This document shows positions 15,226 to 34,442 of a stretch of DNA of 64,000 nucleotides, one piece after another. Origin of the DNA: an uncultured Gammaproteobacteria bacterium (GTDB lineage Bacteria; Patescibacteriota; Microgenomatia; Levybacterales; GWA1-39-11); contig CAZHDZ010000001.1 in the NCBI GenBank assembly GCA_964531275.1, positions 68,882 through 132,881 on the forward strand, written 5' to 3'. Below the pieces are notes generated by a model. It saw only the letters and a program-made list of their open reading frames with translations, was not told the DNA's origin and searched no databases. Every line of letters begins with the position of its first letter. Positions within the stretch are counted from its first letter, which is position 1. The position numbers were made by a program, and so were the translations under genes.

Positions 15226-15242
15226 ACTCTAGTATTTTTACG

Positions 15243-15272
15243 TTGACAATATTTTGAGAATATACATATAAA
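15243..15272 (+). promoter_or_regulatory. candidate sigma70-type promoter for the DUF5684 gene
   Basis: TTGACA (15243-15248), 18-nt spacer, TATAAA (15267-15272), a few nt upstream of ORF start at 15278. Confidence 0.3.
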
Positions 15273-15277
15273 TAGAG

Positions 15278-15745: not shown

Positions 15746-16049
15746 TGTTGCTTTTTAATTTTAAGAACATTCTCCCGTACCCGAATACAATAATAATACC
15801 TCCGATCAAAATCCCTGAGCCAACAATTTGGATGGACAACTCTTGCTGCAAGGGGACTTTGTACGTCGCAGAGAACAGGGTGCAAATATTCTCTTTTTCC
15901 TTTACGCAGTCTCTTTTTTGGATATATCCGCCTTGCGATTGAGGCAGTAAGTAAAAATAAAGAATGATTGCAGCAATTATGCTTAGAAGCACCCAATAGA
16001 AGATAATATAAAAAGGATAATAATTGATTTTCGATGGTGTTAATTTCAT
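15720..16049 (-). CDS. small membrane protein, unknown function
   Basis: Two/three hydrophobic helices; ATGA start/stop overlap with upstream Excalibur gene suggests co-translation; alternative-frame ORF 15742..16128 considered a shadow. Confidence 0.3.
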   Translation of the reverse strand: MKLTPSKINYYPFYIIFYWVLLSIIAAIILYFYLLPQSQGGYIQKRDCVKEKENICTLFSATYKVPLQQELSIQIVGSGILIGGIIIVFGYGRMFLKLKSNTKRTHREV

Positions 16050-16312
16050 GGTAAATTCTCACATACCAAGCCATCCTTATCATTGTCCAGCTGCTTTGAA
16101 TCCGAAATGGAATACTTATAGAGAACATAGAATTCCTGAGCTTCGCTTTGGGTTATAAATAATGAGCATGTTGGTGAATCTCCATCGGAAAGGGTCGGTT
16201 TAACAAAGCGATGCTTATTGTAAGAGGGTACTAGAGCAAAAAAGTAGTAAATAGCGAGACATAACTCTGCCAAGAATGTAACAACAGCAACCCCACCAGA
16301 TAAAAATTTCAC
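16046..16312 (-). CDS. Excalibur (extracellular calcium-binding) domain protein
   Basis: C-terminal DNDKDGLVCE matches the Excalibur DxDxDGxxCE motif; N-terminal hydrophobic segment. Confidence 0.5.
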   Translation of the reverse strand: MKFLSGGVAVVTFLAELCLAIYYFFALVPSYNKHRFVKPTLSDGDSPTCSLFITQSEAQEFYVLYKYSISDSKQLDNDKDGLVCENLP

Positions 16313-16446
16313 AAATCCAAGATAGACAAAAATTATGAACTATTTATTAAATTCAGACGTTAAAATCCCTCTCGCATTCTTGATTTTTTGCAGTTATAAT
16401 TATGTAATTCATCAGCTTCTGGGGTTCGAATTTATCTTCCAAAGAA

Positions 16447-16475
16447 TTGACAGTTAGCAATTAATTTGCTAAACT
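16447..16475 (+). promoter_or_regulatory. candidate lon promoter (-35 TTGACA, 17-nt spacer, -10 TAAACT) with embedded palindromic operator TTAGCAA-TTAAT-TTGCTAA
   Basis: TTGACA 16447-16452; perfect 7-bp inverted repeat 16454-16472; -10-like TAAACT 16470-16475; AGGA RBS before ATG 16488. Confidence 0.4.
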
Positions 16476-16487
16476 GCTAAAGGAATT

Positions 16488-18890
16488 ATGGCAAACGATT
16501 ACGATAATTACAACGAAAAAATGATACCGGTAATTCCAATAAGGGATGGTATCGTTTTTCCCCACACAGAATCTATCCTAACCTTTGGGCGACCACGAAG
16601 CTTAGCCGCTCTTGAATCTGCTTTTTCGGGTGAGAGGGTCGTTTGTTTTGTGCTCCAAAAGAATCCCCGTCAAGAAGATCCAGATGTATCAGACCTATAC
16701 CAGATGGGTACGGTTGCTCACATTGAGAGAATGATCAGATCTGATGGTGAGGTTAACGCCTTGGTAAGAGGTCTTTCCAGAGCTCAAATCGTGAGCTTTT
16801 CTCAATCGACTCAATACATGCAAGCTGTAGTTCATGAAATAGATGATTTTGAAGCTGATAATCCTGAGTTGAGGGCTCTTATGAATCATTTGACTGCTTC
16901 ATTTAAGAAAGCGTTAAGCCTTGGAAAGCAGGCAGACTTTTTAGTCTTTATGAATATCATGTCGGATATTTCTGCCTCAGAACTTGCTGATCAAATTGCT
17001 TCAACATTAGACATAAAAGGATCTGAAAGACAAGAAATTCTTGAGACAGTGAATGTCAAAAAAAGACTTGAAAAGGTTAGCGAATATTTAGACAAAGAAG
17101 TAAAAGTTCTTGAATTAGAGCGAAAAATTGCCTCAAAAACTCAGGAGCAACTCGAAAAATCGACAAAAGACGCAATTCTAAGAGAAAGACTTAAAACAAT
17201 CGAAAAGGAATTGGGTGAAACAGAAGATGGAGGAGAAATAAAGGAGCTTTCAGATAAGATCAAAAAGGCGGGAATGCCAAAAGATATTGAAGAAAAAATG
17301 ATGAAGGAGCTTAAAAAGCTTCAACAGCTTACTCCTTATAATCCAGAATCAGGATACCTGAGAAATTATCTTGAATGGATGGTTTCGATTCCTTGGAGTA
17401 AAAAAACCGAAAGCAAGATTGATATAAAAAGTGCTGAAAAAATTCTAGACGAAGGGCACTATGGACTCCAAAAGGTTAAAGAAAGGGTCATTGAGTACTT
17501 GGCCGTACATAAACTGTCCGGAAAAATGAAGGGTCCAATTCTTTGTTTTGCCGGGCCTCCAGGTGTAGGTAAGACATCTATTGGAAAAAGTATCGCAAAG
17601 TCTTTGGGACGAGAATTTGTAAAAGTATCGCTTGGTGGTATCCGAGACGAAGCTGAAATTAGAGGACATAGAAGAACATACGTTGGCGCACTTCCTGGGA
17701 GAATTATTCAGGGAATTAAAGATTCAGGTACTAAGAATCCAGTATTTATGTTGGATGAAATCGATAAGGTTGGAGCTGATTTTAGAGGGGACCCCTCATC
17801 TGCGCTCCTTGAGGCTTTGGATCCAGAGCAGAATGGCGGATTTTCAGATCATTATCTTGAAGTTCCTTTTGACCTTTCTGATGTTATGTTTATAACAACA
17901 GCAAATAGGCTTGACACTATTCCTCCGGCCTTAAGAGATAGACTTGAAATCATTACTTTCGCAGGGTATACACAGGATGAGAAATTCCATATCGCAAAAG
18001 ACTTTCTAGTTAAAAAGCAACTTGCAATGCACGGGTTGAAAGCATCTCAGGCAAAAATTTCAGACGCAGCCCTTTCTCATGTAATTAATAGGTATACACG
18101 AGAAGCTGGAGTAAGGAATTTGGAAAGACAAATAGCAACCATTGATAGAAAAATTGCTAGAAAAGTTGCTGAAGGTCAGAAGGAAAAGATTGTTGTTACC
18201 GATAAGACCGTTACAAAATTCTTAGGTCCTGAGAAATACTCATCGACCATTGCTGAGCGTAAAAATGAGGTTGGAATTGCTACTGGGCTTGCTTGGACTG
18301 AGGTTGGCGGAGACATACTTTTCATTGAAGTAGCACTTATGCCAGGAAAAGGTCAACTGATAATCACGGGTCAGTTGGGAGACGTCATGAAAGAATCATG
18401 TCAGGCTGCGATGACTTATGTCAGAGCAAGAGCAAAGAAATTTGGACTTTCAGAAGATTTTTACAAGACACTGGATATACATATCCATGTTCCTGAAGGT
18501 GCTGTGCCTAAGGATGGTCCTTCTGCGGGGGACACCATAACAACAGCCTTAGTTTCTGCTTTGACAAAGATTCCAACAAATCACTTAGTTGGTATGACCG
18601 GAGAAGTAACTATCAGAGGAAAAATACTAGAAATTGGAGGAGTGAAGGAGAAGGTTATTGCAGCGCATAGAGCTGGTCTTAGGACAATTATTATGCCTAA
18701 GGAGAACAGAAAAGATCTTGAAGAAATTCCAAAGGAGGTCGCAAAAGACATCAGATTTGTCTTTGTATCTCACATGGACGAAGTATTAAAAGTAGCGCTA
18801 ACAAAACCCTTGCAGGGATTTAAAGAAATAAAGGGAGAGAAAGAAAAGAAGCACAATCTAACAGCCCCTACCCCAACCCTTGCTGACTAG
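16488..18890 (+). CDS. lon: ATP-dependent Lon protease (LonA)
   Basis: N-terminal LON domain, Walker A GPPGVGKTS, Walker B VFMLDEIDK, proteolytic Ser motif DGPSAGDT and catalytic Lys region GGVKEKVIAAHRAG; 800 aa. Confidence 0.95.
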   Translation: MANDYDNYNEKMIPVIPIRDGIVFPHTESILTFGRPRSLAALESAFSGERVVCFVLQKNPRQEDPDVSDLYQMGTVAHIERMIRSDGEVNALVRGLSRAQIVSFSQSTQYMQAVVHEIDDFEADNPELRALMNHLTASFKKALSLGKQADFLVFMNIMSDISASELADQIASTLDIKGSERQEILETVNVKKRLEKVSEYLDKEVKVLELERKIASKTQEQLEKSTKDAILRERLKTIEKELGETEDGGEIKELSDKIKKAGMPKDIEEKMMKELKKLQQLTPYNPESGYLRNYLEWMVSIPWSKKTESKIDIKSAEKILDEGHYGLQKVKERVIEYLAVHKLSGKMKGPILCFAGPPGVGKTSIGKSIAKSLGREFVKVSLGGIRDEAEIRGHRRTYVGALPGRIIQGIKDSGTKNPVFMLDEIDKVGADFRGDPSSALLEALDPEQNGGFSDHYLEVPFDLSDVMFITTANRLDTIPPALRDRLEIITFAGYTQDEKFHIAKDFLVKKQLAMHGLKASQAKISDAALSHVINRYTREAGVRNLERQIATIDRKIARKVAEGQKEKIVVTDKTVTKFLGPEKYSSTIAERKNEVGIATGLAWTEVGGDILFIEVALMPGKGQLIITGQLGDVMKESCQAAMTYVRARAKKFGLSEDFYKTLDIHIHVPEGAVPKDGPSAGDTITTALVSALTKIPTNHLVGMTGEVTIRGKILEIGGVKEKVIAAHRAGLRTIIMPKENRKDLEEIPKEVAKDIRFVFVSHMDEVLKVALTKPLQGFKEIKGEKEKKHNLTAPTPTLAD

Positions 18891-18951
18891 CGCGTATGCG
18901 CCAAGCTCTGCTTAACAATGGCAAGCTTTGCTTACCCTTGTTGACTAGTTT

Positions 18952-20295
18952 TTAACGCTCAGTAAGCATTTTCTCTATAATTTCATGAGCTTTTTCGCCT
19001 TCTTCTTTTAGTAAATATTTTGAAATCAATTTATCTACATCGATTTTGCTTTCTTTTGCAATCTCACTGTACAGATGTGCACTGCGTCTGAGCTTTCTCT
19101 CACCTGTTATTGGGTTATTATCGATAAGCCCAAAGTCCTTTGTGTATCCCAAGATCCATTCAAGATTGTCTACAGTTGACCAGTGGAGATATTGTTCTAT
19201 CTTTGCTCCTTCCTGCATTGCCCTCCAAACTGCAACCAGATGGGTAAGTATATAAAAAGATCTTCTCTTGTCCTCTTTGTCAGCCAAGCCATTTTCTGTG
19301 ATTATAATAGGAAGATTGAATGTTCTATGTAAATAGCGTAATACCTCCAAGAAGAAATCAGGGACAATGGGCCATCCATAGTCTGATTTGTATGAGGCTG
19401 GCTCCCGAGTTTCGCCAAAAAGCAATGTTTTGGCGGTAACTTTGTCAGTATGTCTTGCCCTGAATTTAAGCTTTCTAATGTCTAAATTGAGATAATACCC
19501 CGTGTAGTAATTGCATCCTATGAAATCCATATATTTCTTAGTGGCCTCCACATAACTCCCAACGCTAATATGATTAACAAGTTGTGCGTACCATTTATCA
19601 AGTACAAAGTTCTCATGCTCTGGAAGATTCCACCGGAATGCAAATGTCATACCAACCCTAGACATGGGACTTATGTATTTCAGTTTTCTATACGCTCTCT
19701 TATGTGCTTCAATCATATTCCATCGGGCAACGCTTGCTGATAGAATGTTATTTTTTGCAGGCGGATAGTATTTGGAAAAATAACCCAGAATAACTAATAT
19801 GTTTGGCTCGTTAAGAGTTAGCCAATATTTTACTTCGGGAAATTCAAGGGCTGCAAACTTTACAAAATGCTCAAAATGCCCAATTGTTCTCTTGTTATTC
19901 CAGCTTCCTTCTCGAGCAACCCATTGTGGAAGAACATAATGATTTAGAGTTATCATGGGTATCATGCCGCTATCTATTATTTTTTTGATAACCTCTTTAT
20001 ATCGGGCAACGGCTTCCAGGTTAATATTTCCTTTTTGAGGTTCAATTCGGCCCCACGATACTCCAATTCTTTGAACTTTCATGCCCAAATTGGCCATTGT
20101 TTGGATATCATGTTCTGCACGGCCGGGCTTCCACCATTCTGGCCCCTTTTCGTGCATATTTATGATTTCAGGATACTGCTTCATAAATACATCCCAGTCA
20201 GTGTTTCTCTCACCTTCATTGCCCTCTACCTGATGGGCAGCTGTTGCACTTCCAAATAGGAATTCTTTTGGAAATTCTAAAATCTTTTTCTCCAT
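18952..20295 (-). CDS. glycoside hydrolase family 1 beta-glucosidase/beta-galactosidase
   Basis: GH1 signatures FGSATAAHQVEG (N-term), acid/base LNEPN, nucleophile ITENG; 447 aa. Confidence 0.9.
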   Translation of the reverse strand: MEKKILEFPKEFLFGSATAAHQVEGNEGERNTDWDVFMKQYPEIINMHEKGPEWWKPGRAEHDIQTMANLGMKVQRIGVSWGRIEPQKGNINLEAVARYKEVIKKIIDSGMIPMITLNHYVLPQWVAREGSWNNKRTIGHFEHFVKFAALEFPEVKYWLTLNEPNILVILGYFSKYYPPAKNNILSASVARWNMIEAHKRAYRKLKYISPMSRVGMTFAFRWNLPEHENFVLDKWYAQLVNHISVGSYVEATKKYMDFIGCNYYTGYYLNLDIRKLKFRARHTDKVTAKTLLFGETREPASYKSDYGWPIVPDFFLEVLRYLHRTFNLPIIITENGLADKEDKRRSFYILTHLVAVWRAMQEGAKIEQYLHWSTVDNLEWILGYTKDFGLIDNNPITGERKLRRSAHLYSEIAKESKIDVDKLISKYLLKEEGEKAHEIIEKMLTER

Positions 20296-20516
20296 ACATT
20301 AATATTGAAGAACTGAGGTCTAAAAGTCAAAGTAAAGTCTTTCCGATTTCTTTCAATTTTCTTGTCAAAATACAAATTTTGATAAGTAGAATGACAATAT
20401 GATAAAAGAATTAGGAAAAGTGCTTGGGTTATTCTTTATATTAGTTGCGGTAGCAATAATTTCCTCAATAACATTAAGTTCTCAAAAAGTATCAGCTGTA
20501 GACCATTTTCAGGGAA

Positions 20517-21182
20517 TTAACTCTCTGAGGTGAGTGAAAGAATATAATTAGCTGCTTCTACAAACGTTGTTGCAAAGTAGTCGACAGGTATGCCTTTGAA
20601 GTCATTTTTTACTCTTACGCCGCTTTCAAGAACTGCAACGAAATGAAGCCCTGCACCTTTTGCAGCAACGGCATCACTTACAGCATCTCCAACGTAGACA
20701 ACTTCTTGCGGTTGAAGTTTGAAATCCCTTAGGACTTTTATAAAAACTCTTGGGTCAGGTTTTAGAAAGTCTGAGTTTTCTTTGTAATAAAATTTTTCCA
20801 TTCGGGAATTAAAGGGGTGAAGGTTGTGCAGTAGATGCTTTGCTTCCCCAATAGATCGTGAAGTAAGTAGTGCTAGCTTGATATTTCTGCTTAATAACGC
20901 ATCCAATGTATTTAAGTTGCGTAAGGGAACATGATCAGCTACACCTTGTGCAACGGCTTCTTCGTGAGCAATATAAAGTTTTTGTATAAATTCTTCAACA
21001 TTTATTCCTGGAAATCTTTGCAGTGCTGCAGTTTCTAGATCTACGCCCCAGTTCTTTTTATGCGCACTACGCGTCATTGGTTTATGACCCATTTGCGTAG
21101 CAACTTTATTCTCAATGAGAAAAGTAGCTTCCTCAGTCATGCTTAACGTGCCGTCAAAATCAATAGCAACGAGTTTTATCAT
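20517..21182 (-). CDS. HAD-superfamily hydrolase (beta-phosphoglucomutase/phosphatase-like)
   Basis: Motif I VAIDFDGTL, motif II LTSRS, motif IV GDAVSD. Confidence 0.75.
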   Translation of the reverse strand: MIKLVAIDFDGTLSMTEEATFLIENKVATQMGHKPMTRSAHKKNWGVDLETAALQRFPGINVEEFIQKLYIAHEEAVAQGVADHVPLRNLNTLDALLSRNIKLALLTSRSIGEAKHLLHNLHPFNSRMEKFYYKENSDFLKPDPRVFIKVLRDFKLQPQEVVYVGDAVSDAVAAKGAGLHFVAVLESGVRVKNDFKGIPVDYFATTFVEAANYILSLTSES

Positions 21183-21218
21183 TGATTAACTTGTATTTCT
21201 GTTCTCCATTCACAAAAA

Positions 21219-22298
21219 TTATATCAGACGATACCCAAGCTTTTTATGATTTTCGATAGTGTAACCTTTGGTTTTGAATGCGTTGTTTCGACGGAGTCTA
21301 TAGATCAACGCGTCAAGAGCCCAATCAGAAGCATTCGTACTTTCGATACCCCAAACAGCAATAAATATATCATCCTTAGAGACAACTTTATTTTTATTTG
21401 TTTTGAGAATTTTTAGTAATGCAGCTTCTTTTTTAGGAAGCTTCGTAAACTTTTGGGAAAGAACAAATTCATCAAATAATGGTGAGAATGTTCTATATTT
21501 ATCACCAACTTTCGTTATAAGACCTGTCTCAATAAGGTAACTGTCTGGTTCATTGTTAAATGTGTTTGAGACAATTTTCTTAACAATGCTTTTTTGTAAG
21601 TAAGATAAATGTGAGTAAATTGTTGAAAGACTAACCTTAATGTACGGATCTGTCGAGGATCCTGTTACTTTTTCAGCTTGCAGTAGGAGTTGGAATAGTT
21701 GGAAATGTCCACCCGAAAGACCAAGATATTTTTCTAGATCACTATTATTTATATCTCTTGTTGGACCATACATTTCGTGAAGAGCAAGTAAATCTTCTTT
21801 TGGATATGGCTTTATGTAAAGTGTATTTGCAAACATACTAAGATCTATATCTATTGCATCCTCAGGAATAAGAGACTCTATTCTTTTGCATATTCCGAAA
21901 ATAAATACGATATTTTCTCTATTAACAGCTCTTAATGCTTTTAGGCTTTTAAATATATTTTTTTTAAATTCAAGGTGGAGTTGATCGAATCCACCAAAGC
22001 AAATTACAACCTTTTTACTTTTTGTTACCTCTGAAAGTATTTTTTGACATTCGTATAATCCGCCTTGTCGCGTCCCGCCTAACTGCATATATAGATGCTC
22101 GAAAAGCAATTTTTCACTGGGTTTTGGAAGGGAAAAAATATCAACATAAATATACTGCGCAGATTTAAAAGTAATATTTTTTAGAAAAACAGATATTCCA
22201 ACCCCTGGTATCCCAAGTAGTGAAAAAGACTCCGAATTTTGCACAAAACGCTCAGCATTCTGAGCAAGCTTTTTTGATTGTTGCGAACTTAGGTTCAT
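21219..22298 (-). CDS. regulator with N-terminal P-loop-like ATPase domain (degenerate Walker A) and C-terminal OmpR/PhoB-type winged-helix DNA-binding domain
   Basis: GIPGVGIS (Walker A-like lacking Lys) near N-term; C-terminal LLKILKTNKNKVVSKDDIFIAVWG…ALDALIYRLRR matches trans_reg_C pattern. Confidence 0.5.
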   Translation of the reverse strand: MNLSSQQSKKLAQNAERFVQNSESFSLLGIPGVGISVFLKNITFKSAQYIYVDIFSLPKPSEKLLFEHLYMQLGGTRQGGLYECQKILSEVTKSKKVVICFGGFDQLHLEFKKNIFKSLKALRAVNRENIVFIFGICKRIESLIPEDAIDIDLSMFANTLYIKPYPKEDLLALHEMYGPTRDINNSDLEKYLGLSGGHFQLFQLLLQAEKVTGSSTDPYIKVSLSTIYSHLSYLQKSIVKKIVSNTFNNEPDSYLIETGLITKVGDKYRTFSPLFDEFVLSQKFTKLPKKEAALLKILKTNKNKVVSKDDIFIAVWGIESTNASDWALDALIYRLRRNNAFKTKGYTIENHKKLGYRLI

Positions 22299-22363
22299 AA
22301 ACGTCAGTATTATAACAGTATTTAGTCAAGCTTGCAAATATATTAGCGCTTACAATACGGAAT

Positions 22364-23053
22364 ATGAATAAAGAAATTTCGTTAGCAAATAAAAACATGG
22401 TTGTTGTTGGGGCATCAAGCGGATTGGGATACGAGGTTGCAAGACAACTATCTTCCGAAGGTAGCAATGTGTTTGCTTTATCACGCAAAATTGAAGACCA
22501 ACAATTAGGTTTTACGGCAACAAGAATAAATTGTAATTTAAGAAAACCTGAAGAAATTGTCGAAGCCTTTGAAAGGATTGATAAAGCTGGGGATCTTGAT
22601 GCCCTAATTAACTGTGCAGGTATTGGTCTTACTAAGGACTTTGATTCTACAACACATGAGGAGATTATGGACGTCTTAGGAACCAATTTGAAAGGCTCTA
22701 TATACACAAGCCTAGAGGCATATAAGCGTATGAAAGTTCTTAAGGCAGGGCACATAGTGAATGTTTCATCGACCTCAGGGCTAGTAGGGCGAGACAATGA
22801 AGCGGTATACGCTGCAAGTAAATGGGGCCTCAGGGGTTTTACCGAGAGCCTGAGGCTTGAAGGGGTGAAGAATAAAGTAAGAGTTACCAGTGTCTGTCCA
22901 GGTGGTATGAATTCTGCTTTTTGGAGTGATTTTCCGGATAAAGATTTATCTGCATATATGAATCCAGAAGATGTAGCAGGTCAAATCGTTCATGTACTTA
23001 AATCTCCCAGTGGCATTTCTCCAGCTGAAATAGTTATACAGAGGGGAGTCTGA
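22364..23053 (+). CDS. short-chain dehydrogenase/reductase (SDR) family oxidoreductase
   Basis: Cofactor motif VVVGASSGLGYEVA (TGxxxGxG-type), NAG-like NCAG, catalytic YAASK. Confidence 0.8.
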   Translation: MNKEISLANKNMVVVGASSGLGYEVARQLSSEGSNVFALSRKIEDQQLGFTATRINCNLRKPEEIVEAFERIDKAGDLDALINCAGIGLTKDFDSTTHEEIMDVLGTNLKGSIYTSLEAYKRMKVLKAGHIVNVSSTSGLVGRDNEAVYAASKWGLRGFTESLRLEGVKNKVRVTSVCPGGMNSAFWSDFPDKDLSAYMNPEDVAGQIVHVLKSPSGISPAEIVIQRGV

Positions 23054-24038
23054 GGTTTGTAATAATATTTGTAATTAACATTTCTTTTAAAGATTCAGTA
23101 ATTGTGACGATTACTGCTCCCTCATTCTTTAGTCCATAGATAACTATTGATTCTAGAGGTGCAAAAAGCATTGCGGGGAGTGCGAGTAGATCTTCCTCTC
23201 CATGAATTTCAAGTGAGAATTTGTTATGAGTATTAATACTTTCTTGGATAAAATTTTCAATTTTAAGTGCTGTTGTGCAGTTAATGGTGCCGGGCTCATT
23301 TTCTAATTCTACTGAATTTTTCGGAAGACTTGTAAGAATATGACTGTCTGTTATTTTCTTTCTATTTGATATTTTGTCAAAAATACTGAGATTTGGAATT
23401 AAATCATGTTGCAGTAAATTCGAAACAACAATATCTCCAACCGCGATCGTAAATTTGTTTTGCAAATTCTTAATGTCCATGGTCTTTACAGTCTCTCCGA
23501 AAGGCTCTTTGAGTTGTTCTCTTAAAGAATTAGGGAGAGTAAGTGACGTGTTTTTTGGAAAAAAGTCAGAGTACATATTCCCTCTTCGATCAATTTGCCC
23601 TAGTCTAATTGCGGTTGAGGAGATTCTTTTATTCCTATTGATATCTATAGTTGGTACATCCACAATCTCAAGTTCTTTCAGTCCCAGGCTTTGCCGCTTT
23701 TCATTTACTTTTTTAGCACCACCGTAAGTATCTGAAATAACATATATTGCCTCCAAAGAATTGTCACTAACACTTGGTCCGTAGATATCATCAATTTTAA
23801 AGATTGTAGTTCTTTCGGAATATCCCTTTTGTGATAAAAAGTCTTTGATGGATTGTTCTCTTTTTGCGTAAGGTTCAATTGCGCTTTGCCGTGGTTTGTC
23901 TTGAAGCATTTCATCGGAAGTAATTCCTATAGTGAGTTTTGCTGACTCTAAAAGCGCGGCGTTAATGAAATTTTCATGTCCTTTATGGAAATGATCAAAT
24001 GTGCCACCTAGAACAGAATGATTATATTTGTAATACAT
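23034..24038 (-). CDS. archaeal/eukaryotic-type phosphopantetheine adenylyltransferase (PPAT) fused to a C-terminal about 180-aa domain (possibly DUF359-like dephospho-CoA kinase)
   Basis: N-term VLGGTFDHFHKGH, IGITSDEM, LEAIYVISDTYGGA…LEIVDVPTI align with the archaeal PPAT (COG1019) pattern; C-terminal domain has VGDIVV and GEEDLLALP blocks. Confidence 0.6.
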   Translation of the reverse strand: MYYKYNHSVLGGTFDHFHKGHENFINAALLESAKLTIGITSDEMLQDKPRQSAIEPYAKREQSIKDFLSQKGYSERTTIFKIDDIYGPSVSDNSLEAIYVISDTYGGAKKVNEKRQSLGLKELEIVDVPTIDINRNKRISSTAIRLGQIDRRGNMYSDFFPKNTSLTLPNSLREQLKEPFGETVKTMDIKNLQNKFTIAVGDIVVSNLLQHDLIPNLSIFDKISNRKKITDSHILTSLPKNSVELENEPGTINCTTALKIENFIQESINTHNKFSLEIHGEEDLLALPAMLFAPLESIVIYGLKNEGAVIVTITESLKEMLITNIITNLRLPSV

Positions 24039-24084
24039 AGAGTAAATTTTATTGTATTTTTAGCGTAAAGCAAAGTTGAATAGA

Positions 24085-24121
24085 GGCGTCGCCCCGGAAG
24101 TGAGACTTCCGAGGAGACGCC
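24085..24121 (-). terminator. GC-rich hairpin terminator immediately downstream of the FabG-like gene
   Basis: GGCGTCGCCCCGGAAGT-GAG-ACTTCCGAGGAGACGCC, 17-bp stem with 2 mismatches, followed on the minus strand by a moderately U-rich tract. Confidence 0.45.
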
Positions 24122-24137
24122 AAGAGAACCACTGGGA

Positions 24138-24911
24138 CTAGCCCATGAACAGGCCGCCATCCGCACCGAACACCTTGCCGGTGATGTAGGAAGCGCCAGG
24201 GCCTGCAAGGAAAGCAACGACTGGTGCCACATCCTCGGGCTCACCGAGTTTGTCGGCAGCCCGCCTGTCGCGGACGAGCGGAATATGGCTGTTGACGGTT
24301 TGGGTCGCATCATCAGGCATTTCCGCAATGATGTCCGTCCGGATGAATCCGGGTGAGACTGCGTTGACGGTGATGTTGTTGCGGCCAAGTTCCTTAGCGA
24401 GAGCGAGGGTCATGCCGATCATGCCAGCCTTGGAAGCCGCGTAGTTAACCTGCCCCAGGTTGCCCATTTGGCCGACAACGCTTGTGATATTGATGACACG
24501 GCCATGCTTGGCTTTCTGCAGCGGCCTAACGGCCGCTTTGACCATCAAGAACGCCCCTCGAAGGTTAGTGTTGTGGACAGCATCCCAATCTTCGAGGGTC
24601 ATCCGAAGGAGGGGCCCATCACGGGTTATTCCTGCGTTATTGACGAGGATGTTGAGGCCGCCATATCGTGCGGTGACTGCATCGACGAGGTTTTCGGCAT
24701 CAGCCTGTATGGAGACGTCGCCTCTGATGGCAAACGCTTCGCCTCCCATGTTGATGATTTGTGCGACGACCCCATTTGCAGCGGTCTCGCTTGTGTTGTA
24801 GTTCACCCCGACCTTTGCTCCCTGAGAAGCGAGTTCGCGGCAAATTGCTGCGCCGATCCCTTTTGACCCTCCGGTCACAAGGGCGACTAGGCCGTCTAAC
24901 GGTCCGGACAA
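24138..24911 (-). CDS. fabG: 3-oxoacyl-[ACP] reductase (FabG)-type SDR, encoded in a high-GC island
   Basis: [11 protein letters not shown] cofactor motif, NNAG, catalytic NYAASKAG and PGFIRTD; about 63% GC versus about 35-40% flanks; TTG start with GGAGA RBS. Confidence 0.85.
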
Positions 24912-25169
24912 TAGAAATCTCCAGTAGTGTGTCTGCTAATTTGCGCGATGCGCAAAAACCCTGTATCCTCCTTTCGTTTTTCCTACAGTGGTTGCAGCTT
25001 TTTAAAGACAATAGATGTATCCCCAAAAAGCCGCAACCAAATAATTTCCAGTGGTTTGTTAATGTACAAAGCGTGATAGATCCAAGCAAAAGGATCATCT
25101 AACTTCATAGTGGAGAATTATACAGTATTTAGGTACAAAATGAGAAATAATGCGTGATACAATCAAGTA

Positions 25170-26048
25170 ATGAAAAGTACAGAAGGGCATATACAAGTTA
25201 AAGGCGGAAAGATTTGGTATAAGGTCTTTCTCAGTGAAAAGAATACAACTCCTCTCATGGTCTTGCATGGTGGACCTGGATCCTCTTCTCATTCAATGCA
25301 GACTTTAAGTGAATTCTCAAAAGATAGGACTGTGGTTTTTTATGACCAGCTAGGATCGGGTCATTCTGATAGACCGCAAGATACAAAATTGTGGAAGAAA
25401 GAACGATTTGTTGAAGAGCTAGAGACGCTGCGAAAGCATTTAGGATTTGAGGAGGTATATCTATGGGGACAATCATGGGGGACAATGCTTGCAGTAATGT
25501 ATACATTAAAATTTCCAGAAAGAGTAAAAAGCATTCTTTTTTCAGGACCTTTCTTTAGTAGCAAGAGATGGATCGAGGACGCAAATAAACTCAAGGAGAC
25601 TTTGCCAAAAAAAGTTGTAGAGGTAATTGATAGGAATGAAAAAAATAAAACTTATGACTCGAAAGACTATGAGAGAGCAACTTTAGAATTTTATAAGAAA
25701 TATTTTTGCCGAATTTATCCATATCCAAAACCACTGCAGGAAGGGCAGAAGCTTATGGGGCTTGATGTCTATAACACAATGTGGGGATCGACAGAATTTC
25801 ATTGTACAGGTAATCTAAAAGATGCGGATTATATAGATCGTCTGCATGAGATAAATATCCCTGTATTTCTGATTTGTGGGAAATACGATATGGCAACACC
25901 ATCAACAACAAAATTTTACACAGACAAATTCCCTAATGCAAAAATGAAAATTCTAGATAAAAGTGCACACGCAATGTTCCTTGAAGAGAAAGAATTATTT
26001 CTGAAAAGTGGTATGGAATTTTTTAAAGAAGTAGATCAAAAGATCTAA
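25170..26048 (+). CDS. alpha/beta hydrolase, proline iminopeptidase-like (S33)
   Basis: HGGPGSSS oxyanion motif, GQSWGT nucleophile elbow, C-terminal D and H (SAHAMF). Confidence 0.7.
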   Translation: MKSTEGHIQVKGGKIWYKVFLSEKNTTPLMVLHGGPGSSSHSMQTLSEFSKDRTVVFYDQLGSGHSDRPQDTKLWKKERFVEELETLRKHLGFEEVYLWGQSWGTMLAVMYTLKFPERVKSILFSGPFFSSKRWIEDANKLKETLPKKVVEVIDRNEKNKTYDSKDYERATLEFYKKYFCRIYPYPKPLQEGQKLMGLDVYNTMWGSTEFHCTGNLKDADYIDRLHEINIPVFLICGKYDMATPSTTKFYTDKFPNAKMKILDKSAHAMFLEEKELFLKSGMEFFKEVDQKI

Positions 26049-26124
26049 CAAAATTCACAGATTCCGATTCACGTTTTGACCTTGATAAGGTTTAAATCTA
26101 AAAAACCATATGGTAATATGATGA

Positions 26125-26730
26125 ATGGAAAGCATCGTATTTGTTCTGGATAAAGTTGGCATATTTGCTTTTGCTTTCGTTGGAGTAAGCCACGGAGTTA
26201 AGAAAAAGCTAGATATTTTTGGACTGGTTATCTCGGGTGCAATTACTGCTGTTGGCGGCGGAGTAATACGAGACATATGTCTTGGAAGAATTCCATATGC
26301 CTTGTCACACAGCGAATATCTATTAATTGCGATCTCAGCAAGCGCCTTATCAATTCTCTTTTACAGATACCGACTTAAAATTCCCACAACACTAGTTCTT
26401 ATTGCGGACACGTTAGGGCTTGCTGCATTTGCTATTTCTGGTGCGAATGTTGCAATTGGTGCTGATCTTGGTGTGCTTGTAGTAGTTTTCTTTGCAATAC
26501 TTACAGCGGCTGGAGGAGGCTTACTAAGAGAGATTATTCTTAATGAAATACCCTTTATATTTAGACGTGAAATATACGCAACAGCCGCAGCAATTGGTGC
26601 TTTATTTTTCTACCTTTTAGTGGTCATTGGTCTTGAAATAGATCTTGCCAGTGGGTTCGCCTTAGTGTCGATAATTGCGATTAGATTTTTTTCAATTAGT
26701 AAAAACATTCATCTTCCGGTCATACGATAA
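26125..26730 (+). CDS. UPF0126 / TRIC-like (YadS/YicG family) membrane protein
   Basis: Two internal repeats each with Gly-rich motif (TAVGGGVIRD; TAAGGGLLRE) characteristic of UPF0126/glycine-transporter domain. Confidence 0.6.
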   Translation: MESIVFVLDKVGIFAFAFVGVSHGVKKKLDIFGLVISGAITAVGGGVIRDICLGRIPYALSHSEYLLIAISASALSILFYRYRLKIPTTLVLIADTLGLAAFAISGANVAIGADLGVLVVVFFAILTAAGGGLLREIILNEIPFIFRREIYATAAAIGALFFYLLVVIGLEIDLASGFALVSIIAIRFFSISKNIHLPVIR

Positions 26731-26741
26731 AGCAAGAAAAT

Positions 26742-27005
26742 TTACTTTACAGTAAGAGTGTGTGTTGTTGTGGAGCCGCCGTTCCCATTAAGATTGTGAC
26801 GAGTTATTGGCGTAAAAGAAACAGTTTGATCAACAAATAATTGTTGCCCTTCTGGTATCGGCAGAAGTGCTTTTGATATCTCGCCAATATCAGGTCTTTC
26901 ATACTCAATAACTGCAATATTTCTACCCTTCGAATCAAGAGGATCTTTTATCTCTATCAGTGTCCCGCATTTAGGAGTGCCAATTGTGAATAATATCTCT
27001 GTCAT
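26742..27005 (-). CDS. hypothetical small beta-rich protein
   Basis: 87-aa ORF, no recognisable motif. Confidence 0.3.
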   Translation of the reverse strand: MTEILFTIGTPKCGTLIEIKDPLDSKGRNIAVIEYERPDIGEISKALLPIPEGQQLFVDQTVSFTPITRHNLNGNGGSTTTHTLTVK

Positions 27006-27137
27006 GCAGCGATTATAGCATAGGACTATTACTCATACTAGAACATACTGTATCTGTTATAGTTATAGATAGGAATTACTTCTTACACTCCTAGTTCCTT
27101 TTCTGCATTTATCCGCACGCGTTCCTAAAGACATTGT

Positions 27138-28346
27138 ATGAACATTCTTTTTATTAGTCCTAATTCACCTTTTGAAAGCATCGGTGGAATTGAAAGATAT
27201 GTAATTAATCTTATTAATTTTTATAAAAATAGAAAAGAAGATGAGGTGCACTTGATCCTTCCAACAAAAGAAAAAAGCAACATAGTCAAGGAAGGTAGTA
27301 TGACTATTTATTATGATACAAGCCTTTTTGTTTCGGGAGATATGACACGGTCGCAGACAGAAATAGTTGATAAGGCACATTTATTTGCTTCACTTGTAGA
27401 AAAAATTATTAAAGACGAAAAAATTGATATTATCTGTGCAGAAAATATTATGTTCAGTACTCCCCCTTCCTTCAGTCTTTTGCTTAATATGGTTGCCAAT
27501 ATACACAAGATTCCTCTTGTTCTGCGACTTCATATGTATCCAGCCTCAGATCTTCAGATTGCATTAACCACACAACTTTTATGGAATAAAATTAGTTGCG
27601 TTAGTAGAAGTGTTGTTGGGGATTGTTTTGAAAAAGGCGCAAACATAGATAAATTATCTACGGATTATTTAGGAGTAAATCTTGATAATTTTAATACGGT
27701 TCGTGATCCAAAATATCAACTGAGAAAAAAACTAAATCTTTCAGAAGACAAAAAGATAATTCTAACGGCAAGTCGGATTATCAGGGGTTCTAAAAATATC
27801 TTGCAGGAAAAGGGAATAATTAATCTCATTCAAGCTTTTTCAAAACTCGCTTTAAGATATCCAGACTTACACCTCGTGATTGGTGTTGGAAAAGCGTCTG
27901 AAAATTTAAAAAACCATTTCAATAGTGCTTATGAAATGCTTCTGGGATATATAAAAATTCACAATATAGAATCCCAGACGTCAGTTAAGATGTTTGAGCT
28001 CGATGAAATGCCAGATGTCTATAGAGAATCAGATGTATTTGTCCTTGCTGCAGAGCGCAATGAAACTTTCGGACAGGTGTTTATCGAAGCAATGGCATGC
28101 GGGCTCCCAGTAATAGGTGCAAATACAGGAGGAATTCCTGAAATTATTAGTGATTCATATAATGGGTATTTGGTTCCTGCAGATGACTCAAGTGTTCTTG
28201 CCCAACGAATAGAAAGTTTGGTGAAGGATGATGTAATAAGAAGTGATTTTATTAAGGCGGGTATAAAGACTATTGAGGAGAAATTTACTTCTGAAGATCA
28301 ATTCCTGAGTTTTAATAAAATGTTAAGAAACATTCAGCTAAGCTAG
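27138..28346 (+). CDS. glycosyltransferase family 4 (GT-B, retaining)
   Basis: C-terminal ETFGQVFIEAMACGLPVIGANTGGIPEII (EX7E motif). Confidence 0.8.
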   Translation: MNILFISPNSPFESIGGIERYVINLINFYKNRKEDEVHLILPTKEKSNIVKEGSMTIYYDTSLFVSGDMTRSQTEIVDKAHLFASLVEKIIKDEKIDIICAENIMFSTPPSFSLLLNMVANIHKIPLVLRLHMYPASDLQIALTTQLLWNKISCVSRSVVGDCFEKGANIDKLSTDYLGVNLDNFNTVRDPKYQLRKKLNLSEDKKIILTASRIIRGSKNILQEKGIINLIQAFSKLALRYPDLHLVIGVGKASENLKNHFNSAYEMLLGYIKIHNIESQTSVKMFELDEMPDVYRESDVFVLAAERNETFGQVFIEAMACGLPVIGANTGGIPEIISDSYNGYLVPADDSSVLAQRIESLVKDDVIRSDFIKAGIKTIEEKFTSEDQFLSFNKMLRNIQLS

Positions 28347-28949
28347 TAAAAGCATTAGCACTGCAAGAGCTGCCATCCCAAAATCTTCAATTAATGTAAC
28401 TTTAGTCAAAGGAACTTTTAAGAATGTGCCCAGACAAACGCATTGGAATTTTTCACCTTTCATAATTTTTTGGAGAACTCCTATTCCTGAAAAAGTCATA
28501 ACAATGATTTCAAGAATTAGTATCTGAGTTGTCCATAGACCAACTATCATCGCAAGGCCAAAAAACAGTTCTATAAAAGGATAAACATATCCATATTGGT
28601 ACCATTTCTTGGCAAGCAGATCATATGTAAAATATCCATCTGCAAAGCCTTTCAGATCAATAAGTTTAAATCCGGCGAAGACAATAAAAAAGCCTGCCAT
28701 GAAGCTTTGCAGTATTGATTTTAGATTAACCGAGTTTTGATTAAATGAAATTGCAAGTGATGTTAAAAGAATTAGACCTACAATAATAAATAAGGGGGTG
28801 TAATTTTTTAAGTCAGAATCTTTTTTAACATGATGCGCGCTGTGAGATTTAGCTTCTCCCTCCAGAACTAACCTCATGCCGCAGATAGAGCAATTCCCAG
28901 GCTTTTGCTGTCTAATCTCAGAATGCATCGGGCAAACGTAAAATTTCAT
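28338..28949 (-). CDS. membrane protein with N-terminal heavy-metal-binding zinc-ribbon domain (YxCPMHxE…CxxCGM) and DoxX/MauE-like TM domain
   Basis: N-term FYVCPMHSEIRQQKPGNCSICGMRL then 4 TM helices. Confidence 0.5.
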   Translation of the reverse strand: MKFYVCPMHSEIRQQKPGNCSICGMRLVLEGEAKSHSAHHVKKDSDLKNYTPLFIIVGLILLTSLAISFNQNSVNLKSILQSFMAGFFIVFAGFKLIDLKGFADGYFTYDLLAKKWYQYGYVYPFIELFFGLAMIVGLWTTQILILEIIVMTFSGIGVLQKIMKGEKFQCVCLGTFLKVPLTKVTLIEDFGMAALAVLMLLLA

Positions 28950-28992
28950 ATATTCTATTATACCAGTCAGTCAATCCTTGATATAGCAGTAT

Positions 28993-29043
28993 GCTTATTA
29001 AAGCCGCAGGCTTATTAAAGCTGCAAGCTTATTAAAGCTATTT
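28993..29043. repeat. 17-bp tandem repeat x3 (GCTTATTAAAGC[CT]GCA[GA]) in divergent intergenic region
   Basis: Three consecutive copies at 28993, 29010, 29027; each unit has inverted arms GCTT…AAGC; lies between divergently transcribed metal-binding membrane protein and chromate-transporter genes. Confidence 0.6.
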
Positions 29044-29066
29044 TGGCTTTGATATAATTTAATGTT

Positions 29067-29630
29067 TTGAAAAAAGAAAAAGACTTTTCATATAAAGATT
29101 TATTCATTGCCTTCTTCAAAACAGGTAGTGTTTTTGGAGGAGGACTTGGAGTTCTTTCGTCATTGCGTGAGCAATTTGTCAAAAATTTAAAGATTGTTGA
29201 GAATGATGAATTTATGGCTATTTGGGGAATTGCTCGTATTGTTCCTGGCGGAACGATTGGTGCAATTGCGATTGCGATTGGTTATAAGAGCAAGAAGATA
29301 TTGGGTGCTCTTATTGCAATTACAGCACTTACATTGCCCGGATTTTCAGTTGCCTTAATACTTTCAATGCTCTATTTACCCCTGAAGGGTACTCCCTTTT
29401 TTGGGTACATGAATGATGCGGTTCTTCCTGCAGCCTTGGGGCTTATCGTTCTGGCAATCATAAATTTAGGTAAGGATGTATTTACTTCTAAGATTTTAGT
29501 AGCATTTTCTATTTGTTCCTTCATTTCTTCGTTTTTTCTTAACCTTAATCCGACATTTGTCCTTTTAGTTGGGGGAGTGCTCGCTGCAGGAATCTTAATG
29601 AGAAGGGGGAAGAAAAGTGTCACTACTTGA
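29067..29630 (+). CDS. chromate transporter ChrA family, short-chain half (N-terminal-type)
   Basis: CHR-family pattern FFKTGSVFGGGLGVL…RIVPGGTIGA; 187 aa; overlaps partner gene. Confidence 0.7.
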   Translation: MKKEKDFSYKDLFIAFFKTGSVFGGGLGVLSSLREQFVKNLKIVENDEFMAIWGIARIVPGGTIGAIAIAIGYKSKKILGALIAITALTLPGFSVALILSMLYLPLKGTPFFGYMNDAVLPAALGLIVLAIINLGKDVFTSKILVAFSICSFISSFFLNLNPTFVLLVGGVLAAGILMRRGKKSVTT

Positions 29631-30138
29631 TCTATTAAGCGTATTTCTTTTCTATACAATTATTACTTTTGGAAATGCCTTGGTAATGTTCCCAATACTT
29701 CGTGAAGAGCTGGTTATTAATCGTCACGTTATCACAAGTGAACAATTGCTATACGCATTTGCTGTGGCTCGCGTGACGCCTGGTCTCTTCAATTTGTATG
29801 TGACATCTATTGGGTATATGTTGTATGGAATAGTGGGCGCGACACTATCTACAATTGTGATAGCTCTTCCCGCGTTCATAATTATTCCTTTTCACAAACT
29901 GTATGAAAAAATAAAAAAGAATTCTTTTGTTGCAAATTTCGTAATCGGAATGACTGCAGTATCAGTAGGTCTTATCTTTTCAGCAGTTGCTGATATGGCA
30001 AAGCTAACACTTACCGGTACAATTCCTTGGATAGTTTTTATTGCGGTGTTGGTGCTTTCAAGAATAATCAAAAAAAACACATTCTATTGTTTTGTGATAG
30101 CAAGTCTTCTTGGGATCGTTCTAAAATTTTTGTCCTAA
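29617..30138 (+). CDS. chromate transporter ChrA family, short-chain half (C-terminal-type)
   Basis: IITFGNALVMFPILREELV…ARVTPGLFNLYV; 173 aa; overlaps upstream ChrA half by 14 nt. Confidence 0.7.
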   Translation: MSLLDLLSVFLFYTIITFGNALVMFPILREELVINRHVITSEQLLYAFAVARVTPGLFNLYVTSIGYMLYGIVGATLSTIVIALPAFIIIPFHKLYEKIKKNSFVANFVIGMTAVSVGLIFSAVADMAKLTLTGTIPWIVFIAVLVLSRIIKKNTFYCFVIASLLGIVLKFLS

Positions 30139-30165
30139 GAAAATTTAAAAGCAAAAGACACAAAA

Positions 30166-32148
30166 TTAAAGTTCTATTGAGTGTCCATCTTCTTGTATTA
30201 CGTGCCTAATGGCTCTTCTCTGGTAATTCTCAGTAACTGTAGGATATGCTTTTGCAGTTTCAGCAATTTCGCTTTTGTTTTTGGTTATATATTTGTTCTG
30301 CATAGCTCTTACTTCGGCAATAGCATCTTTAAATGTAGGTTGTATAAAAATTTTCTCAACATTATCCAGATAATCTATAACTGCATACGATGTGAAAAGA
30401 CGCGCATGGAGCAGTTGGTAGCGTTCTTCTATTATCTCTTCTTTTGCGATGCCAAAGTATTTTCTCAGAAGAGGATATCTAATTATGGTTCTTTTTAGTC
30501 TCAGTAATCTTTTTCTGTATGAATGGTTGGTTTCAATAAATCCATCTTGATCTACCAAACGCCCTTTTGGCATATTTGGATGCTCTAGGGCGTCGAGCTG
30601 CATGTCCAATTCTGTCTCGAATAGAAAGTGAACATTCTCATCAAATCTTCCTTCATGGAATAATTTATCTGAGGTTGTGCGCTCAATTTCTAAAGCCTGA
30701 ATTTTTAGACTATGAAGAAACGCAAAATAATCAGAGGTTTGGTCTAGTCTATCCCTTAATACTTTGGCCTTTTTGTCCAGACGGCCCATTGTTTCATTTA
30801 TAATTTCAGGAGAAAACTCACGTTTGGAAAGCTCTGCTAATTTATTCTTTCTGTTTTGAATTGAGAACAATTTCATTTCATCTGTAATAATTTTTTCTTC
30901 AGAGCTTGGCAGGTGTAGTCTTAGCTTAACCAAAAGCCATTTAATCGTGAGACCATTAAATAGAAGTGTGAATAGTAGAGTCCCAAGTGTAAAGCTTAAT
31001 ATCGTGTCTTTATAAATAAAACTATCGGGGAGTGAGTACACCAAAACTAAAGGAATAACTCCACGAAGACCGCTCCAATTGAGGATGTGCTGCCATGAGA
31101 GAGGTATATTAGGTTCGTCTCTGAAGAACGGTGTGTAATTGGTTATGAACGCTGAAAGATAAACAGATACAGCTCGTCCAATAAGAACTGCTCCAGCCGC
31201 AATAAGGACTCCAGTCATATTACCTATGAACATTGAAAAATTCAGATTGAATGTTGCAAAGAAAAATACCAGTGACACTGCTACAAAACCCCAGAAAGCC
31301 CAGAATTCTTCTATAAAATGTATAGCTTGAATAGAAAGTTTGTTTCTGCCAATATTACCCATTGTTATGCCTGCCATAACGGTTGCTATTACGCCTGACA
31401 CATGGAGATAGTGTTCTGCTGTTATAAAAGATCCAAGTGCAAGAGCAGCGGTAACTGTATTTACCAGAATTCTGTCATTTTTAACTAAAGGAACAATTCT
31501 TGATGCTATATATCCAAGAACAGTTCCATAAATCAGACTTCCAAAAAATACCCATGAAAAATCAATAACCCCGGTAAAAAGTTTGCCTGCTTCAAAAGCC
31601 GTACCTCCCAAAACAAAAACCGATACTATGCGAAATGCTATAACTCCGGTAGCGTCATTGAACATGCTTTCTCCATCAGCAAGCAATGCAAGGCGTTTTG
31701 GGGCACCTAATGTTTTGAAGAGTGACAGAACGGCAATCGGGTCAGTTGCTGATATCAACGCGCCAAACAGAAGAGCGGGACCAAGAGGCATGTTGAGGGC
31801 AAAAGCTACTAGAAATCCCACAACAAACATTGATATTAGAAGCCCAAATGTTGCAAAAAATGAGATTGTTTTGAACTGAAGACGAAATTGATGGATATTT
31901 ATGTGCAGTGCTGCTTCAAAAAGAAGAACCGGCAGTAAAACAAAAAATATAACATCTGTGCTTAGGACCAGTTGGATATTGAGTCCAAGAAAATTATTTA
32001 CAACTTGCACAAGGAAGCCACTTAGTAAAAGTGCCACAGTATAAGGGAATGTTGATTTCTCTGAAATGCGTTGAATTACTGCTATTATGCAAAAGAAAAA
32101 CGCACTAAATAAAATAATTGATTGGACTATGTTGTGTTCCATTGCCAA
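30166..32148 (-). CDS. Na+/H+ (cation:proton) antiporter, CPA1/NhaP-type, with C-terminal cytoplasmic domain
   Basis: About 12 TM N-terminal transporter domain with ATDPIAVLSLFK (CPA1 motif) followed by about 250-aa soluble tail. Confidence 0.8.
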   Translation of the reverse strand: MAMEHNIVQSIILFSAFFFCIIAVIQRISEKSTFPYTVALLLSGFLVQVVNNFLGLNIQLVLSTDVIFFVLLPVLLFEAALHINIHQFRLQFKTISFFATFGLLISMFVVGFLVAFALNMPLGPALLFGALISATDPIAVLSLFKTLGAPKRLALLADGESMFNDATGVIAFRIVSVFVLGGTAFEAGKLFTGVIDFSWVFFGSLIYGTVLGYIASRIVPLVKNDRILVNTVTAALALGSFITAEHYLHVSGVIATVMAGITMGNIGRNKLSIQAIHFIEEFWAFWGFVAVSLVFFFATFNLNFSMFIGNMTGVLIAAGAVLIGRAVSVYLSAFITNYTPFFRDEPNIPLSWQHILNWSGLRGVIPLVLVYSLPDSFIYKDTILSFTLGTLLFTLLFNGLTIKWLLVKLRLHLPSSEEKIITDEMKLFSIQNRKNKLAELSKREFSPEIINETMGRLDKKAKVLRDRLDQTSDYFAFLHSLKIQALEIERTTSDKLFHEGRFDENVHFLFETELDMQLDALEHPNMPKGRLVDQDGFIETNHSYRKRLLRLKRTIIRYPLLRKYFGIAKEEIIEERYQLLHARLFTSYAVIDYLDNVEKIFIQPTFKDAIAEVRAMQNKYITKNKSEIAETAKAYPTVTENYQRRAIRHVIQEDGHSIEL

Positions 32149-32273
32149 GAAAAAACCTCACTTCTTGTGAGGTTCATATATTCTACCAAAAAAATTCTTG
32201 TATGGCATTTACATTTTGGACGTTTTAAGTTGAAATAATAGCTTCACATTGATATACTTCGACACACTTATAT

Positions 32274-32765: not shown

Positions 32766-32792
32766 AGTGGTATAATAATACTAAATTCACGC

Positions 32793-34340: not shown

Positions 34341-34442
34341 TCTTTTCCGATTGAATTTCAAAACAACCTCACATTGCGTGGGGTCGTTTTTTATTAACCC
34401 ATAGTTAATTTTTGACTCTGAAGGTGGTATAATTCGCCAAAT

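Follow-up and report, generated by a model that had tools for sequence, protein, structure and literature searches.

A two-domain archaeal-type protein, very likely completing coenzyme A synthesis, in a Levybacteria-like bacterium of the Candidate Phyla Radiation

There is an archaeal precedent for joining the last two steps of coenzyme A (CoA) synthesis in a single gene. In marine group II (MG-II) archaea a phosphopantetheine adenylyltransferase (PPAT) is fused to a domain of the DUF359 family, and this fusion provided the 2019 clue to the archaeal dephospho-CoA kinase (DPCK), with TK1697 of Thermococcus kodakarensis then being proved to be a GTP-dependent DPCK (PMC6650551). DUF359 had been the sole uncharacterised gene in a pan-archaeal core of 218 genes (PMC6393860). 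PSI-BLAST in the 2019 paper retrieved archaeal members of arCOG04076 only, and T. kodakarensis also carries CoaE-like proteins that are without DPCK activity (PMC6650551). The subject here is a bacterial gene of the same architecture. It is located at 23034..24038, on the minus strand, of a 64,000-nt stretch of contig CAZHDZ010000001.1 (the whole of this stretch is termed the window), and is complete, with 334 codons and a stop, on the evidence of the list of open reading frames (ORFs) and of Pfam and NCBIfam matches to two domains.

Very likely the gene specifies a bifunctional PPAT and DPCK, a single-polypeptide ‘CoA synthase’ composed of two archaeal-type enzymes. For archaea, the fusion and what it means are already in the literature, and the bacterial gene is a solid annotation rather than a discovery. 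No paper on the PPAT-DPCK fusion of the Candidate Phyla Radiation (CPR) clade was found in the searchable literature, where the bacterial distribution of the fusion, though recorded in databases, appears not to be discussed.

Two archaeal-type domains in one polypeptide

The domain matches of both halves lie far beyond chance. The PPAT domain, residues 1-157 (23568..24038, minus strand), is of the archaeal/eukaryotic type with the nucleotidyltransferase Rossmann fold. It matches Pfam CTP_transf_like over residues 9-145 (E 1.1e-11, 45.4 bits against a cutoff of 21) and, over residues 4-156, the NCBIfam model PRK00777 for archaeal pantetheine-phosphate adenylyltransferase (E 2.7e-42, 144.5 bits against a cutoff of 104), positions 3-153 of the 157 in that model being covered; the bacterial CoaD model TIGR01510 is absent among NCBIfam matches to the protein at E<=1. 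Residues 166-334 (23037..23543, minus strand) constitute the DUF359/arCOG04076 GTP-dependent dephospho-CoA kinase domain, where PF04019 matches residues 205-320 with 85.4 bits (cutoff 25; E 3.1e-24), its own positions 2-117 out of 126 being aligned, and the CoaE model PF01121 is absent among the Pfam matches at E<=1. This half also matches NCBIfam models for GTP-dependent dephospho-CoA kinases, below their lineage-specific equivalog cutoffs. A preliminary description of this DNA, made from the letters and a list of ORFs, had assigned residues 1-150 to archaeal/eukaryotic PPAT, not bacterial CoaD, and had likened the C-terminal 180 or so residues to DUF359 DPCKs. Both assignments stood up to the Pfam and family searches (PF04019/DUF359 among them), in which each half matched curated models with scores over the cutoffs, and to the fold and residue comparisons that follow; the peptides it quoted (GGTFDHFHKGH, IGITSDEM, LEAIYVISDTYGGA, LEIVDVPTI, VGDIVV and GEEDLLALP) are all present in the translation of the ORF.

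Solved structures yield the same pair of families. In sequence searches Archaeoglobus fulgidus PPAT (PDB 3do8) matches residues 9-154 (E 6.5e-22) and the T. kodakarensis GTP-dependent DPCK TK1697 (PDB 8jvc) matches residues 168-320 (E 2.4e-15, ~27% identity). With residue 154 as the last of the PPAT match and 168 as the first of the DPCK match, the interdomain linker is only about 8 residues, and the gap between the two is placed at residues 158-165 (DFFPKNTS; 23544..23567, minus strand). An AlphaFold model, built from a 22-sequence alignment, has a mean predicted local distance difference test score (pLDDT) of 91.0 and a predicted template modelling score (pTM) of 0.88, and its overall topology is confident. 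When it was compared with the PDB by Foldseek, with template modelling (TM) scores normalised to target length, 8jvc and 8jvg came first (E 2e-13, TM 0.78-0.82; for 8jvc itself 2.2e-13 and 0.81), followed by 3do8 (E 5.8e-9, TM 0.80-0.84, root mean square deviation 1.8-2.2 Å; in one superposition 35% identity and 1.8 Å over 124 columns). Bacterial CoaD structures appeared only at E~1e-5, with 11-19% identity.

Catalytic residues were followed through an alignment (A1) of 22 homologues having 36-69% identity. H18-K-G-H21 (23976..23987, minus strand) is the (H/T)xGH nucleotide-binding motif of the nucleotidyltransferase superfamily, and in it H18, G20 and H21 are invariant; in I139-S-S-T-A-I-R145 (23604..23624, minus strand), the ISxTxxR motif of that superfamily, I144 and R145 are invariant with I139, S140 and S141 each being present in at least 90% of sequences. 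In the kinase half HMMER alignments pair Asp202 (23433..23435) with Asp48 of TK1697 (VGDIV with VGDVV), Asp221 (23376..23378) with Asp67 (IFDKI with LYDLK) and Asp283 (23190..23192) with Asp125 (GEEDLLALPA with GEEDLAAIPA), the three codons being on the minus strand. All three aspartates are invariant across the 22 homologues, as is the stretch from G280 to L285 around Asp283. Mutagenesis showed Asp48, Asp67 and Asp125 of TK1697 to be important: D48A almost eliminates complementation, and D67A and D125A also give phenotypes (PMC6650551).

The ORF is real, on the minus strand, which the preliminary description had left unstated. The ATG is at 24038-24036 and the TAA at 23036-23034, and the 22 homologues align at the window Met1 or within 4 residues of it, two of them having longer called N-termini. 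At its 3' end the gene overlaps by 20 nt a convergent short-chain dehydrogenase/reductase (SDR) gene, an overlap found both in the window and in the closest related contig (L001, considered below). Its GC content, ~35%, equals that of its flanks.

Host, distribution and proposed function

Among the products encoded in the window (GC content ~36%) are a LonA that carries the N-terminal domain for substrate binding, response regulators of the OmpR type together with a histidine kinase, and an SLT transglycosylase for peptidoglycan, from which it follows that the contig is bacterial. An NCBI protein (P0368) matches the Lon at 100% identity, Lon proteins named Levybacteria or Levyibacteriota share 75-76% with it, and the gene set and this relationship together uphold the earlier placement of the fusion in a bacterium; judged by these proteins, the host, a bacterium of tiny genome, is a Levybacteria-like member of the CPR. 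Contig L001 (ENA ERZ794922) is syntenic with the window from ~15000 to 34400 and has its fusion gene, of 70% identity, in the same place. The order abhydrolase / fusion / SDR / regulator / HAD / GH1 / LonA recurs in the independent assemblies L001, L085 and L086, and such shared order and overlap in independent contigs exclude a chimeric origin of the fusion gene.

Divergence along this syntenic segment is uneven. The fusion protein has 70% identity to its L001 counterpart and 49% to that of L085, while the corresponding values for Lon are 96.9% and 95.5%, for GH1 92% and 83%, and for PPDK 84% (L085 only). Xenologous replacement of the fusion gene was considered as a source of the disparity between 49% and 95.5%, and was rejected: all syntenic genes rank the relatives identically, and the fusion gene is therefore simply fast-evolving.

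The architecture is not rare. In a set of 5.8 billion proteins the fusion protein has 789 matches, and among the 120 of these that were listed nearly all carry both Pfam domains and are 320-350 amino acids long; the few source names among them are ‘pantetheine-phosphate adenylyltransferase’, ‘hypothetical’ and, once, ‘GTP-dependent dephospho-CoA kinase’. An exhaustive scan of 1.84 billion representatives (of clusters at 50% identity) yielded 4579 matches at E<=1e-3, and at the stricter E<=1e-30 there were 702; each of the top 150 extends over the two halves. In GTDB, with one genome per species, 562 stretches encode a relative; 80 of these were kept, all being full length, and it is to these 80 loci that the locus counts and neighbourhoods given below apply. 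Their bacterial titles are Levy-, Roizman-, Chisholm-, Gottesman-, Kaiser- and Yanofskybacteria and Paceibacteria, and their archaeal titles Poseidoniales (including the MG-II chromosome CM001443.1, L078), Micrarchaeia and Aenigmatarchaeota. The MG-II CM001443.1 and Poseidoniales loci align over residues 4-319 with 28-33% identity. The PPAT-DPCK architecture is thus standard in Microgenomates and Parcubacteria, and the rarity that the preliminary description implied has to be given up, the more so as the arrangement had already been published for archaea.

Labels of metagenome-assembled genomes (MAGs) are unreliable in this family. Many CPR-like contigs are titled ‘uncultured Gammaproteobacteria’ (in TPA bins) or ‘uncultured Pseudomonadales’; a Poseidoniales-type copy of the fusion carries a Balneola label; and the proteins of L034 (Kaiserbacteria) and L035 (‘Norongarragalinales archaeon’) begin at the same called N-terminus and can hardly be told apart in the tree.

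From which direction did the fused gene travel? Neighbour joining of 81 full-length fusions (100 bootstraps) gives a Poseidoniales group at 99% and a DPANN trio at 100%. The group holding all the archaeal sequences has 18% and that of the window with Levybacteria 14%, and CPR sequences form many deep branches. Bacterial copies of DUF359 were met here only in genomes that are labelled CPR/Patescibacteria or have doubtful MAG labels. It is from distribution, not from the tree, that we infer an archaeal origin of the fused gene, because DUF359 is pan-archaeal and its bacterial copies were met only in such genomes.

Neighbours of the fusion gene are of a housekeeping kind. In 23 of the 80 loci leuS follows directly downstream; 11 have nadE immediately upstream in the opposite orientation, and 14 have a tyrS/trpS-like synthetase nearby (recognised by eye from HIAQ/KMSKS motifs, not by profile search). 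RarA is also among the neighbours. Neighbourhood clustering of these loci linked no CoA-pathway partner gene to the fusion.

A longer variant deserves separate mention. Relatives of ~500 amino acids (P0074, P0081 and P0072; loci L023, L027, L036 and L039) have an extra N-terminal domain of the archaeal NMN adenylyltransferase (NMNAT) type with a GRFQPFHKGH motif; its PRK01153 score is 127.7 bits in P0074 (cutoff 127) and slightly under cutoff in P0081 and P0072. The loci of this putative triple fusion, NMNAT-PPAT-DPCK, fall in a clade with 99% bootstrap that includes shorter members, and the gene is often situated between nadE and leuS. By its domain content such a protein would be equipped for the final steps of both NAD and CoA synthesis.

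The pathway proposed for the window protein has two steps. The N-terminal domain (1-157) would convert 4'-phosphopantetheine and ATP to dephospho-CoA and pyrophosphate, and the C-terminal DUF359 domain (166-334), with Asp202, Asp221 and Asp283 as its three conserved aspartates, would then phosphorylate the 3'-hydroxyl, yielding CoA and GDP from dephospho-CoA and GTP. GTP is probably the phosphate donor, by analogy with Thermococcus TK1697. With the domains joined by just 8 residues, the product of the first step would be formed beside the site of the second. As to physiology, the protein may be the only CoA route of the organism, drawing on 4'-phosphopantetheine or pantetheine that is scavenged and not synthesised de novo, a proposal that we regard as evenly balanced; salvage is suggested because CPR genomes are small, and Saccharibacteria, another CPR lineage, have been reported to be without CoA and pantothenate synthesis (PMC11659515). 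Families CoaD, CoaE, CoaBC and PanK were not found in any other ORF of at least 120 amino acids in the 64-kb window. The presence of canonical coaD and coaE, which the preliminary description had said would make this gene a paralogue of other function, is thus not seen within the window, a result that extends over these 64 kb and not the whole genome.

A broader scheme is conceivable, and we hold it a little more doubtful than the salvage role just outlined. In it, Microgenomates and part of Parcubacteria, and so much of the CPR, would be without CoaD and CoaE and would finish CoA, from scavenged 4'-phosphopantetheine or pantetheine, with a fused archaeal PPAT and GTP-dependent DPCK acquired by inter-domain transfer and shared with DPANN and MG-II archaea, one Roizmanbacteria-related clade having added an archaeal-type NMNAT and so finishing NAD as well as CoA.

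Several points weigh against the interpretation favoured here. That CPR members have the two enzyme activities, and prefer GTP to ATP, we infer from sequence and from analogy. Canonical coaD and coaE, or upstream coaBC and PanK, may lie outside the 64 kb. The direction of inter-domain transfer is left unsettled by a tree with 18% bootstrap for the all-archaeal group. The fusion protein evolves faster than its neighbours, which might reflect relaxed constraint, yet its catalytic motifs are invariant. Finally, Thermococcales-specific equivalog models score well under their cutoffs, 78.8 bits against 300 for NF041125, the Thermococcales DPCK equivalog, and 106.2 against 290, as is expected in distant orthologues. 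Because NF041125 is a lineage-specific equivalog, the shortfall leaves membership of the DPCK family intact: it rules out close orthology to the Thermococcales proteins and not belonging to DUF359.

Of the explanations that compete with a bifunctional PPAT-DPCK, the one with most to be said for it, though we think it unlikely, is that the gene is a paralogue with another job, acting on some other nucleotide cofactor or as a salvage enzyme that is redundant or regulated, with canonical CoaD and CoaE being encoded elsewhere in the genome. The inspection covered 64 kb of that genome, the protein diverges quickly in comparison with its neighbours, and the CoaE-like proteins of T. kodakarensis, which have no DPCK activity, show that family annotation can mislead. 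However, the window yielded neither coaD nor coaE, and retention of one architecture with invariant catalytic residues in hundreds of small-genome CPR species would be unusual for a dispensable paralogue; PRK00777, moreover, passes its cutoff whereas models for NMNAT, FAD synthetase and glycerol-3-phosphate cytidylyltransferase reach no more than 20 bits.

Rather less probable still is that both domains act on other substrates, the N-terminal one being an adenylyltransferase for NMN, FMN or another compound and the DUF359 domain working on something other than dephospho-CoA, for instance in the manner of a thiamine pyrophosphokinase. Members of the cytidylyltransferase-like superfamily have diverse functions, thiamine pyrophosphokinases are distant relatives of DUF359, and there are weak matches to NMNAT models (E 4e-4 to 0.2). 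Yet those models give 10-20 bits against cutoffs of 127-450, compared with 144.5 for PRK00777; the ~500-residue relatives add a separate archaeal-type NMNAT before the PPAT domain, and therefore the PPAT-like domain is not the NMNAT; and the closest solved structures are a PPAT and a DPCK, not a thiamine pyrophosphokinase. As for archaeal DNA having been misjoined to a bacterial contig in assembly or binning, the archaeal type of both domains and the unreliable MAG labels of the family might have encouraged such a view, but it is effectively refuted by the match in GC between gene and flanks, by the 20-nt SDR overlap that recurs in L001, and by the same gene order in the independent assemblies L001, L085 and L086.

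The neighbouring DNA

Upstream of the PPAT-DPCK gene is a high-GC insertion of ~1.08 kb (24077..25157, minus strand), a neighbour and not part of the enzyme, which contains a fabG ORF at 24138-24911 (minus strand) with 55-62% GC per 100 nt against ~36% in the flanks. L001 has no counterpart of 24077-25157, its abhydrolase and fusion genes being nearly adjacent, while L082 and L083, independent Logan assemblies with 86% nucleotide identity to the window, have the same high-GC gene, the same low-GC flanks, identical junctions and then the start of the fusion gene. That the fabG island might be an assembly chimera was considered and rejected: since two independent assemblies share the junctions, it is a real insertion. 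The closest FabG homologues are P0121 (91%) and P0122 (75%), beyond which the best are from Chloroflexota (Dehalococcoidia, Tepidiformaceae) at 59-63% identity, and on these matches the insertion is of Chloroflexota-like origin. In the comparison, which took in L082, L083 and L084, a third relative, of 75% amino-acid identity, is also high in GC and has a different downstream gene. The copies have diverged by 14-25%, yet their GC content stays high. A CTCTAT-like motif is present at both ends of the insertion in L082 (~25-40 and ~1075-1090) and in part in the window (~24072-24080 and ~25150-25160), and once at the empty site of L001 (ACGTCTATTTAG, ~7975-7985); it could be a 5-6 bp target-site duplication, though it is short enough for chance.

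At the 3' end of the inserted fabG, folding reveals a GC-rich hairpin of 37 nt with 16 paired positions (24085..24121, minus strand), and the 102-nt segment that includes it has a folding energy of -32.1 kcal/mol (z = -5.8 against shuffles). The hairpin has no U tract and was not called a terminator by the consensus scan, and its candidacy as a canonical intrinsic terminator is accordingly unsupported. Earlier it had been stated that the gene is right downstream of a high-GC fabG island whose terminator lies about 46 nt from the start; position and distance are correct, the hairpin ending exactly 46 nt before the ATG, and only the word ‘terminator’ goes beyond what the scan supports. Between hairpin and gene, 12 nt upstream of the ATG, is TACAAT (24051..24056, minus strand), a possible -10 element that, in an alignment of the window, L001 and L082, is kept both with and without the fabG insertion. 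The fusion gene may therefore retain a -10 element of its own despite the insertion, though the promoter scan scored no full promoter at this position.

Elsewhere in the window an ORF of 161 amino acids (48964-49449, minus strand) matches baeRF_family10, of the bacterial archaeo-eukaryotic release-factor-like kind, with 45.9 bits against a cutoff of 27.1, and is adjoined by a VKOR-family membrane protein at 48554-48961. Five large ORFs of 478-1349 amino acids are without a Pfam match at E<=1e-4 or 1e-5 (6756-8687, 8732-10168, 11176-15225, 60192-61841 and 61822-63543). The one at 11176-15225 (minus strand) is that for the 1349-residue protein, and local GC is raised there, to 0.40-0.45 over 11001-15000.

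Meaning and comparison with known systems

The gene now has a firm functional annotation, where the names in public databases (‘pantetheine-phosphate adenylyltransferase’, ‘hypothetical’) usually miss the kinase half, and a DPCK family thought of as ‘archaeal’ turns out to be common in CPR bacteria, which the 2019 discovery paper did not report. Should the genomes be confirmed to be without CoaD, CoaE and the upstream pathway, a nutritional dependency on 4'-phosphopantetheine or pantetheine would be pinned down, of use for CPR cultivation, and CPR bacteria and DPANN/MG-II archaea would provide a further clear example of shared genes.

Nearest in kind are the PPAT-arCOG04076 fusions of MG-II/III archaea (e.g. 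AIF21550.1; Shimosaka, Makarova, Koonin and Atomi, mBio 2019, PMC6650551), which have the same domains in the same order, a length of ~340 amino acids and the same predicted function in the last two CoA steps, the difference being an archaeal host as against the CPR bacterium here. TK1697 (PDB 8jvc, 8jvf and 8jvg) has the fold of the window DPCK domain (TM 0.81) and, at ~27% identity, shares D48, D67 and D125 with it; it is, however, a standalone protein of 177 amino acids from a hyperthermophile, where the window domain is fused and its donor is assigned by analogy. With archaeal PPATs (COG1019; Pyrococcus abyssi PPAT, TK2128 and A. fulgidus 3do8) the N-terminal domain shares the passing of PRK00777 and the HxGH and ISSTxIR motifs, though, unlike the window fusion, those enzymes are standalone or have other partners, as in the PPAT/NTP phosphatase of PRK01170. 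Bacterial CoaD (TIGR01510) and CoaE (PF01121) carry out the same two reactions. CoaD has the nucleotidyltransferase fold in common with the window protein, though its structures match at 11-19% identity only, and CoaE is non-homologous to DUF359.

The eukaryotic CoA synthase COASY follows the same logic of PPAT first and then DPCK in one polypeptide, and its PPAT domain is generally placed in the same archaeal/eukaryotic branch. Its DPCK domain, however, is a P-loop kinase of the CoaE type and unrelated to DUF359, and the fusion in this bacterium is therefore analogous to that of eukaryotes, and not homologous, in its second half.

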